Source of the DNA: Escherichia phage vB_EcoM_VR7
Sequence record: NC_014792.1
Reading direction: 5' to 3' (one strand)
Length of the DNA: 64,000 nucleotides
In this document: positions 11,816-13,226 of the stretch, piece by piece
Position numbering within the stretch: position 1 is the stretch's first letter
Layout of the letters: every line of letters begins with the position of its first letter
Notes under the pieces: generated by a model
Database searches by the model: none
What the model saw: the letters and a program-made list of their open reading frames with translations, nothing else
What the model was told of the DNA's origin: nothing
Position numbers and translations under genes: made by a program

Positions 11816-13099
11816 ATGACACAAACTACAGGTGAAAAAGAAGGCGTATTTTACGGTTATTCTCTTTATGATTTGAATAAAGAAAAACTAATAACTTTTG
11901 ATGAATTACTTACGGGTATTCAAGGAGAGCCCGGAGAAAATGGCGATATTGGACCAAAAGGTGACCAAGGCCCTGTGGGACCACAGGGTATTCAAGGGGA
12001 TACAGGTCTTCAAGGAGTTCCAGGAGAAAATGGTGCTATTGGACCAAAAGGTGACCAAGGCCCTGTGGGACCACAGGGTATTCAAGGGGATACAGGTCTT
12101 CAAGGAGTTCCAGGAGAAAATGGTGCTATTGGACCAAAAGGTGACCAAGGTATTCAAGGGGATACAGGTCTTCAAGGTATTCAGGGACCACAAGGACTAC
12201 AAGGAGACCCGGGAACGCAGGGTCCACAGGGTATTCAAGGTCTAAAAGGAGATAAAGGCGACCAAGGTATTCAAGGTGAAACAGGTGCTCAAGGTATTCA
12301 GGGTATTCAAGGAGTTCCGGGTGCCAAAGGAGATATAGGCCCAGTCGGTCCGGCAGGTTTAACATGGAAAGGTTCTTGGAATATTGCAACTGCTTACGCA
12401 GTTAACGAAGCCGTTGGACACGATGGAAGCCTATATTTCGCCACAGCTGAAAGCACCGGACAAACTCCTTCATTAGGTAGCGATTACTGGGAAGTCTTAG
12501 CAACGGAAGGGCCTGAAGGTCGGCAGGGCGTAGAAGGCGCGCAGGGTCCACAGGGTATTCAAGGTCCACAAGGTATTCAAGGACCTAAAGGTGATACGGG
12601 TGAAACTGGACTACAAGGTCTTAAAGGCGACAAAGGAGAGGCAGGTTTAACCGGACCACAAGGACTCCAAGGTATTCGTGGCGAACAAGGAGAAACGGGC
12701 GCACCGGGTATTCAAGGTATTCAGGGTATTGCTGGAGACCAAGGTCCTAAAGGTGACACGGGCGACAAAGGTGATACAGGTGCCACTGGTCCAGCCTACG
12801 AGTATAAAAAAGTATCTAGATTTACAATGCCTGCCGCTGGTATATCAAATTCTACTCCTTTATTCGATTCAGGATTAACAATAAGTATGTTAGGCGTCAA
12901 AGCTAATACATTTAGATTTACCCTTACTAATACAGGTTCAGCGTCTAGAGTTATTGATGGTGAAATAATTTATTTTGACCCGGACGGTACAGCAAAAAGA
13001 TTTGTTGTTCATTTTTCAATAGCTGCTGGTGAGACAACCAATTTTCGGTACGTACACGTATGCAATTACAACTCCCAGAGTTTTTACTTTAAATTTTAA
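11816..13099 (+). CDS. Collagen-like (Gly-X-Y) repeat protein with an embedded carbohydrate-binding-like motif; C-terminus probably continues in another frame to 13217
   Basis: Long GXY runs ([25 protein letters not shown]...) interrupted by W..G..Y......G.LY.A...W-type segment; GGAGG SD; perfect 90-bp tandem DNA repeats inside. Confidence 0.8.
11925..12190 (+). repeat. Perfect in-frame 90-bp tandem repeats (about 2.5 copies) inside the collagen-like gene
   Basis: Unit ggaccaaaaggtgaccaaggccctgtgggaccacagggtattcaaggggatacaggtcttcaaggagttccaggagaaaatggtgctatt repeated head to tail. Confidence 0.9.
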
Positions 13100-13226
13100 T
13101 GCTACTGGGACTACACAACACGCCCACGAAGTAAAATATTTTATAATAGGACGCGACGGTTATACGGAAAATACTTCTGTTGGTGCTACTGTTACTATTG
13201 AAAAACTCTATAACTAAGGACTACAA

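Follow-up and report, generated by a model that had tools for sequence, protein, structure and literature searches.

A one-base insertion, recent mutation or sequencing error, probably breaks the frame of the collagen-like fiber gene gp196 of Escherichia phage vB_EcoM_VR7

Introduction

The closest described counterpart of the lesion analyzed here is found in the side-tail-fiber gene stf of laboratory phage lambda (PaPa) which, as Hendrix and Duda are said to have reported in 1992, is split by a single-base frameshift compared to Ur-lambda. The stf mutation was confirmed in the DNA, and its phenotype is the loss of the thin fibers and slower adsorption. Gene gp196 of Escherichia phage vB_EcoM_VR7 (hereafter VR7) resembles stf in that, in each case, an accessory fiber gene of a laboratory phage differs by a one-base indel from the intact genes of wild relatives. 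The two cases differ in that the stf indel was verified in DNA and has a known phenotype, whereas the gp196 lesion is known from the database record alone.

The other systems relevant to this locus involve +1 slippage of the ribosome. The programmed class that we used for comparison comprises prfB, cps/tsh of Listeria phage PSA, and sites of the influenza PA-X type. UUU/C-CGG/U codon pairs were reportedly measured by Schwartz and Curran in 1997. In bacteria, UUU_Ynn sites are especially prone to +1 frameshifting, and the low-level +1 shift of influenza A uses UCC_UUU_CGU; low-level slippage that offsets an indel has been termed 'compensatory' frameshifting (PMC5009743).

Here we analyze a 64,000-nucleotide stretch of VR7 DNA (sequence record NC_014792.1), denoted the window, for which a model reading the sequence alone had predicted a frame-shifted extension of a collagen-like gene (the original prediction). 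The alignments with relatives indicate that VR7 gp196 is very probably one gene of 466 codons with a non-programmed one-base T insertion, either a very recent mutation or a homopolymer error. Given that no relative carries the extra T, we are dealing with an ordinary recent mutation or sequencing error and not with a new way of reading a gene. The event is an ordinary one, and the original prediction localized it correctly.

Reading frames and flanking signals of gp196

As deposited, the collagen-like gene runs on the plus strand from an ATG at 11816 to a TAA at 13097–13099, and the ORF translates into a Gly-X-Y-rich protein of 427 aa. The end of this frame at 13099 had been predicted, and the TAA is read there directly; likewise, the +1 frame, said to be open from about 13023 to 13217, contains a TAG at 13020–13022, is free of stops from 13023 to a TAA at 13215–13217, and encodes exactly the peptide that had been quoted. 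By itself, the open +1 frame proves little because its length is only mildly unusual: stop-free +1-frame runs of at least 64 codons number 32 of 953 in the real genes of the window (P ~0.04). What puts the second frame beyond chance is that six relatives have one continuous ORF there, differing from VR7 by exactly one T.

The run of four T occupies positions 13042–13045 (plus strand), and the frame-0 codons across it are AAT (13040), TTT (13043), and CGG (13046), followed by TAC. Upstream lies the native-frame part of the gene, codons 1–410 (11816–13045, plus strand), which is delineated by the ORF list, Pfam and PHROG matches, and orthologs. Translation past the run gives an out-of-frame tail of 17 codons, the first being CGG, and the TAA (13046–13099, plus strand). 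The native last 56 codons, displaced into the +1 frame, span 13047–13217 (plus strand), as indicated by identity to VR5, the family alignment, and an AlphaFold2 model, and the protein encoded in this frame ends in ...TIEKLYN.

The signals around the gene fit the longer reading frame at its 3' end. The T4 late-promoter consensus is TATAAATA, and a putative late-promoter-like box, AATAAATA, recognized by sequence, matches it at 7 of 8 positions 22 nt 5' of the ATG (11786–11793, plus strand). A Shine-Dalgarno sequence, GGAGG, is located 4 nt before the ATG (11807–11811, plus strand). At the other end (13216–13229, plus strand), the TAA at 13215–13217 overlaps AAGGA, the ribosome-binding site of the next gene, which starts with the ATG at 13227; the resulting 10-nt spacing recurs in the annotations of phages VR5, ESCO10, VR25, and VR26, and the ortholog ORF also ends 10 nt before the Hoc-like gene in four metagenome or SRA contigs. 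By comparison, a stop at 13099 would leave an atypical 128-nt gap.

The next gene (13227–14045, plus strand) encodes a Hoc-like head-decoration protein of 272 aa, the second of its kind, that exactly matches VR7 gp197 (ADR32572.1/YP_004063878.1) and hits phrog_1149 (1.8e-57). This exact gp197 neighbor, together with the labels in the VR5, VR25, and VR26 records, where the homologs are named 'similar to VR7 gp196; collagen triple helix repeat protein', identifies the gene under study as gp196. The order of genes is that of a T4-type head region: gp23, two gp24 paralogs, rnlB, 24.2/24.3-like genes, the collagen-like gene, the Hoc-like gene, hoc, inh, and uvsW.

Comparison with relatives

The six relatives are the genes of phages VR5 and ESCO10 and those on four contigs found by way of the Hoc-like protein cluster (Logan SRR22213611, ENA ERZ8811434, Logan SRR9113699, and ENA ERZ27234686). 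When all seven sequences are aligned, the window has AATTTTCGG where the six independent relatives all have AATTTCGG, and the extra T is the sole indel across 441 aligned columns. When the 441-nt segment was used as the query in megablast and blastn, 440 nt were matched in both VR5 and ESCO10. The single extra T places the sequence downstream of it in the +1 frame. The original prediction was thus right to place the lesion in the T run, although the run lies at 13042–13045 and not, as given there, at 13041–13044.

The gp196 ortholog is one uninterrupted CDS in both VR5 (YP_009205873.1, 'tail fiber protein', 433 aa) and ESCO10 (UPW37897.1, 'host specificity protein', 454 aa), and both proteins share the locus, the N-terminus, and the domain order with VR7. 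Removal of one T from the VR7 gene yields a 466-aa gp196, the last 142 residues of which, that is, the C-terminal domain, are identical to those of VR5 (142/142) and 85% identical to those of ESCO10. At the nucleotide level, the 172 nt 3' of the break are the same in the window and in VR5, with zero substitutions. Given this lack of decay downstream of the break, the lesion is either very recent or artifactual.

The 'collagen triple helix repeat' proteins of VR25 and VR26 (526 and 508 aa, respectively) are more distant: the architecture is as in VR7, but the C-terminal domain is only 23% identical, with shared residues on both sides of the break. In all four phages, the gene sits between 24.3 and the Hoc-like gene, as does VR7 gp196, and is uninterrupted; VR7 alone has the extra T. 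As the observation that would speak against a frame-shifted extension, the original prediction had named orthologs that stop at the position equivalent to 13099 and do not conserve the second frame. Instead, every ortholog stops at the position equivalent to 13217, and the +1-frame peptide is retained even in homologs that are only about 15–25% identical.

A search for the TTTT allele in other public sequences found none: IMG/VR returned only VR5, with TTT, and the JGI metagenomes returned nothing, which is in keeping with either a private mutation or an error. Exact look-ups of the 427-aa product and of the VR7 locus retrieved no record, and a word-indexed protein search gave one match, from which we draw no conclusion, the same collection being also without the 433-aa ortholog from VR5.

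One of the contigs, Logan SRR22213611, has a peculiarity of its own. Its collagen-like gene (1845–2597) is much reduced in length and has been split into two ORFs by the gene calling, an in-frame stop interrupting the collagen repeats (…GPV*PQG…); this probably reflects an assembly collapse of the repeats and not biology. The C-terminal domain of this gene is intact and has TTT.

Protein architecture and the C-terminal domain

The gp196 protein consists of an N-terminal segment of about 33 aa, a first block of collagen Gly-X-Y repeats, a central non-collagen domain of about 50 aa, a second collagen block, and the C-terminal domain. The repeats match the Pfam family Collagen (PF01391, 1.5e-41) in five stretches, and Pfam detects nothing else in gp196. 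The repaired protein aligns with phrog_5073, 'tail fiber protein' (6e-120), over profile positions 169–512 of 519, and the C-terminal domain alone with positions 384–514 of 519; the deposited 427-aa product is without the last 56 residues of this matching protein. The 'tail fiber' name of the PHROG relatives is an annotation only. Because gp196 is located among head genes (gp24, hoc, inh) and beside two Hoc-type genes, a head fiber is as possible as a tail fiber.

The first collagen block contains a 90-bp tandem repeat (11911–12150, plus strand; Tandem Repeats Finder, 2.7 copies with 95% match) that encodes a repeated collagen block of 30 residues. Relatives vary in the length of the collagen part, with whole-protein lengths of 466 aa in VR7 (repaired), 433 aa in VR5, and 454 aa in ESCO10, which suggests that expansion and contraction of the repeats alter the length of the fiber.

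A search of 1.84 billion representative proteins with a profile of the C-terminal domain yielded 17 homologs, and nearly all matches reach the C-terminus of the respective protein, for example, 370–512 of 512, 339–463 of 463, and 339–461 of 466. Among 50,697 phage records, this type of C-terminal domain is present only in VR5 and ESCO10, and it has no characterized or solved relative. An AlphaFold2 model of the 142-residue domain, computed from the family alignment, is one compact, 10-strand beta-sandwich (pLDDT 82.9, pTM 0.78); the jelly-roll C1q/TNF fold of the trimeric C-terminal domains of bacterial collagen-like proteins (BclA type) was not found.

The native-frame part covers 86 residues of the domain, such that residue 86, which is residue 410 of the whole protein, is the last one before the frame change; this position lies inside strand 7 (residues 83–90). 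The segment 13047–13217 encodes the remainder of strand 7 and strands 8–10, and the displaced part, 56 residues long, makes up 39% of the domain. Six columns of the 16-sequence family alignment are invariant or nearly so, namely, P24, R54, D57, R97, G121, and R122. Because the break is inside strand 7, strands 8–10 and the last three of these six most conserved residues, R97, G121, and R122, are encoded solely in the second frame. We infer that a truncated product ending in 17 nonsense residues would be unable to form the sandwich.

The two halves of the C-terminal domain had also been thought to repeat a sequence pattern. This part of the original prediction failed: BLASTP of one half against the other produced no alignment even at E<=100, and an internal duplication is not supported.

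Taken together, the sequence features are best read as those of a late-expressed accessory fiber on the virion surface, with the distal beta-sandwich likely serving as the binding tip, and we infer that this fiber is dispensable. Two proteins from the profile search have an unusual organization: P0009 (2099 aa) and P0019 (527 aa) match only profile positions 78–120 of the C-terminal domain, 19 and 6 times, respectively, which would mean that they contain a tandemly repeated segment resembling strands 7–9. In four distant homologs (P0008, P0012, P0021, and P0022), the body composed of collagen, central domain, collagen, and C-terminal domain is kept, and the short N-terminus of the VR7 type gives way to a duplicated domain of about 100 aa (…EGW.PYG…MAKG…); this swap suggests different virion-attachment modules on the same fiber.

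Recent mutation or sequencing error

The course of events that we propose is simple. The gp196 gene would be a single gene, 11816–13217, with 466 codons when counted without the extra T, encoding a virion protein of the fiber type, and the addition of a T to the TTT run (now 13042–13045) would shift the frame inside the C-terminal beta-sandwich. Ordinary translation would then give the 427-aa product, with 410 native and 17 nonsense residues, and without 56 native residues, namely, part of strand 7 and strands 8–10. The lesion may have originated as a very recent spontaneous insertion that was fixed in the sequenced stock and inactivated the distal domain of a dispensable accessory fiber or, alternatively, as a homopolymer-length error in the deposited sequence. 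No observation contradicts the one-base insertion itself and, as far as the sequence can tell, the two origins appear about equally likely.

If the extra T is a base-calling or other sequencing error, present only in the deposited record, the phage itself carries TTT and an intact 466-aa gene, which we consider to be close to an even chance. A change by +1 in the length of a homopolymer is a classic type of error; the TTTT allele is seen in no other record; the 172 nt 3' of the break and the repaired domain (142/142) are identical to those of VR5; and nothing is damaged in the promoter-like box, the ribosome-binding site, or the close junction with the gene that follows. Against an error, a run of three to four T is short for this type of miscall, and no other gene in the 64-kb window has a broken frame, so that the record is otherwise clean. 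In the tblastn comparison, about 80 of the 92 VR25 proteins have a full-length, single-frame counterpart, with zero other frame-broken genes in the window, so that a generally error-prone assembly is unlikely, although a single error is still compatible with this result. The whole-window comparison with VR5 is too divergent (~70–87%) to inform on indels.

The other multi-frame flags in the tblastn output were examined and discarded, all being paralog matches (gp23/gp24, hoc/Hoc-like, alc); gp59 and gp38 are intact.

The same absence of frame errors elsewhere in the window favors a genuine loss of function, whereby a T inserted by strand slippage became fixed during isolation or laboratory propagation and disabled the distal domain of a dispensable fiber; our confidence in this origin likewise falls just short of one half. 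It fits an accessory gene, with a C-terminal domain type that is found in only two other phages among the records searched, and a module that is mosaic and exchangeable, and the lambda PaPa stf gene is a precedent. What weighs against a genuine mutation is that selection shows no sign of having relaxed downstream of the break; given the zero substitutions compared to VR5, the mutation would need to be extremely recent.

Possible slippage and the improbable programmed-frameshift and two-gene readings

If the T is genuinely present, some slight leakage past the truncation may occur because the insertion created a UUU_CGG site of a shift-prone type. The change is from AAT TTC GGT to AAT TTT CGG T, and a P-site tRNA-Phe that slips from UUU to UUC, with GGU read next, would restore N-F-G-T, the exact ancestral sequence. 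By analogy with known sites, a fraction of ribosomes of the order of 1% or less might slip at this accidental AAU_UUU_CGG and restore the ancestral 466-aa fiber, but we regard this as rather unlikely. Like the UUU_Ynn sites of incidental bacterial +1 frameshifting, Yersinia YopN-TyeA, and influenza A PA-X (PMC5009743), the VR7 site places in the P-site a UUU that is able to re-pair on UUC and in the A-site an Arg codon (CGN) that is decoded slowly. These known sites, however, show conservation and give rise to a functional product of their own, whereas the VR7 site is private and made by an indel, and slippage there would only recreate the ancestral protein. In the herpesvirus thymidine kinase 'savior-indel' (PMC5009743), an indel in a G-run is partly offset by slippage at the same run, as might be the case for the T run of VR7; the benefit to selection is demonstrated in the former, and none is suggested in the latter.

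Collagen-like fibers being trimers, rescue of about 1% per chain would produce very few all-complete trimers unless the C-terminal domain nucleates trimerization. The combination TTT_CGG does not occur in frame in the 80 genes of the window, which is no evidence of avoidance because only about 0.7 occurrences are expected from the codon counts. If this slippage does take place, VR7 would represent a natural indel that is partly 'self-corrected' by translation, and the phage could carry a few complete fibers per burst.

An evolved, programmed +1 shift at UUU_CGG, producing the 427-aa and 466-aa forms in a set ratio, is far less probable still, and we deem it highly improbable. The site does have a slippery P-site codon followed by a slow A-site codon: tRNA-Phe is able to re-pair perfectly on UUC; no sense codon is used less often than CGG (29 of 17,866, or 1.62 per 1000) in the 80 genes of the window; and UUU_CGG is of the shift-prone type, with parallels in UUU_Ynn and PA-X (PMC5009743). 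Nevertheless, the two-frame arrangement is found in none of the six relatives, all of which encode the long form directly, and on this ground a conserved programmed frameshift is rejected; of the three options originally offered for the T run, the recent indel and the sequencing error survive, and this one does not. The distant homologs are single ORFs as well, the allele is private to one record, and the native sequence of the short form would break off within a beta-strand of what is one domain. No stimulator was found either: there is no Shine-Dalgarno-like sequence at about 3 nt upstream, the nearest, GGTGAG, ending 9 nt before the UUU codon, and the fold of the 80 nt downstream is unremarkable (z = -1.38) as a stimulatory mRNA structure.

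Phase variation generally involves runs of about 7 or more nucleotides, and RNA polymerase slippage runs of about 8–9 A/T. With four T in the window and three in the relatives, the run falls far below the length needed for a contingency locus or a site of transcriptional slippage, and neither mechanism is applicable.

Finally, a GTG-initiated ORF is present at 13029–13217, but the idea that a truncated collagen protein is followed by an independent gene for a 62-aa protein has practically no chance of being correct, given that the GTG at 13029 is not preceded by a Shine-Dalgarno sequence, the 62-aa product would consist of three strands of a larger sandwich, and the same codons form the in-frame end of one gene in all relatives.

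Implications for annotation and experiment

Under the single-base insertion reading, gp196 is to be treated in annotation as one gene of 466 codons with a frameshift, and not as a gene for 427 aa with a 128-nt gap behind it. The finding is useful for correcting the annotation and is of low general interest. If the mutation is real, VR7 and VR5 constitute a natural near-isogenic pair for the gp196 module and, because the break is the only difference between their C-terminal domains, this pair could reveal the role of the distal beta-sandwich in adsorption, host range, or low-temperature growth. Given that the C-terminal domain has no characterized or solved relative, any functional data on it would be new. 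The UUU_CGG site, with no sign of an evolved mechanism, also offers a ready-made natural cassette in which to test incidental +1 frameshifting.

Mosaicism and neighboring genes

The region around gp196 is a mosaic. Positions 11000–11961 of the window are 95% identical to VR25 (Gaprivervirus) and only 84–88% identical to VR5, whereas the identity to VR5 (Dhakavirus) is 96.9% from about 12001 to 15489, a segment that takes in most of the collagen-like gene, all of the Hoc-like gene and hoc, and part of inh. On the left, the mosaic junction falls directly behind the 48 codons that encode the conserved N-terminus of the collagen-like protein, a sequence pattern that suggests an exchange of exposed parts on a conserved anchor. 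Another mosaic patch involves RNA ligase 2 (rnlB; 10087–11091, minus strand), the protein product of which is only 71% identical to that of VR25, compared to 98–100% for nearly all neighbors.

The two Hoc-type genes are convergent (13227–14045, plus strand, and 14071–15186, minus strand), and together with the collagen-like gene they form a surface-decoration gene cluster. The 272-aa Hoc-like protein has a C-terminal motif in common with Hoc (Y[IV]HPL...YIW.GWWVMD...VQESRNG), and the N-terminal Ig-like domains of the two proteins differ. Two tandem paralogs of gp24, the capsid vertex gene, are located at 7502–8779 and 8783–10066 (plus strand) and are annotated likewise in VR5 and VR25.

Farther away, a 182-aa ORF (50922–51470, minus strand) lies between gp32 and gp59. 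This ORF is absent from VR25, and its stop overlaps the end of gp59, which is shortened to 217 aa from the 222 aa in VR25. A SegG-like homing endonuclease occupies the same position in VR5, and the 182-aa ORF is probably a mobile homing-endonuclease insertion.
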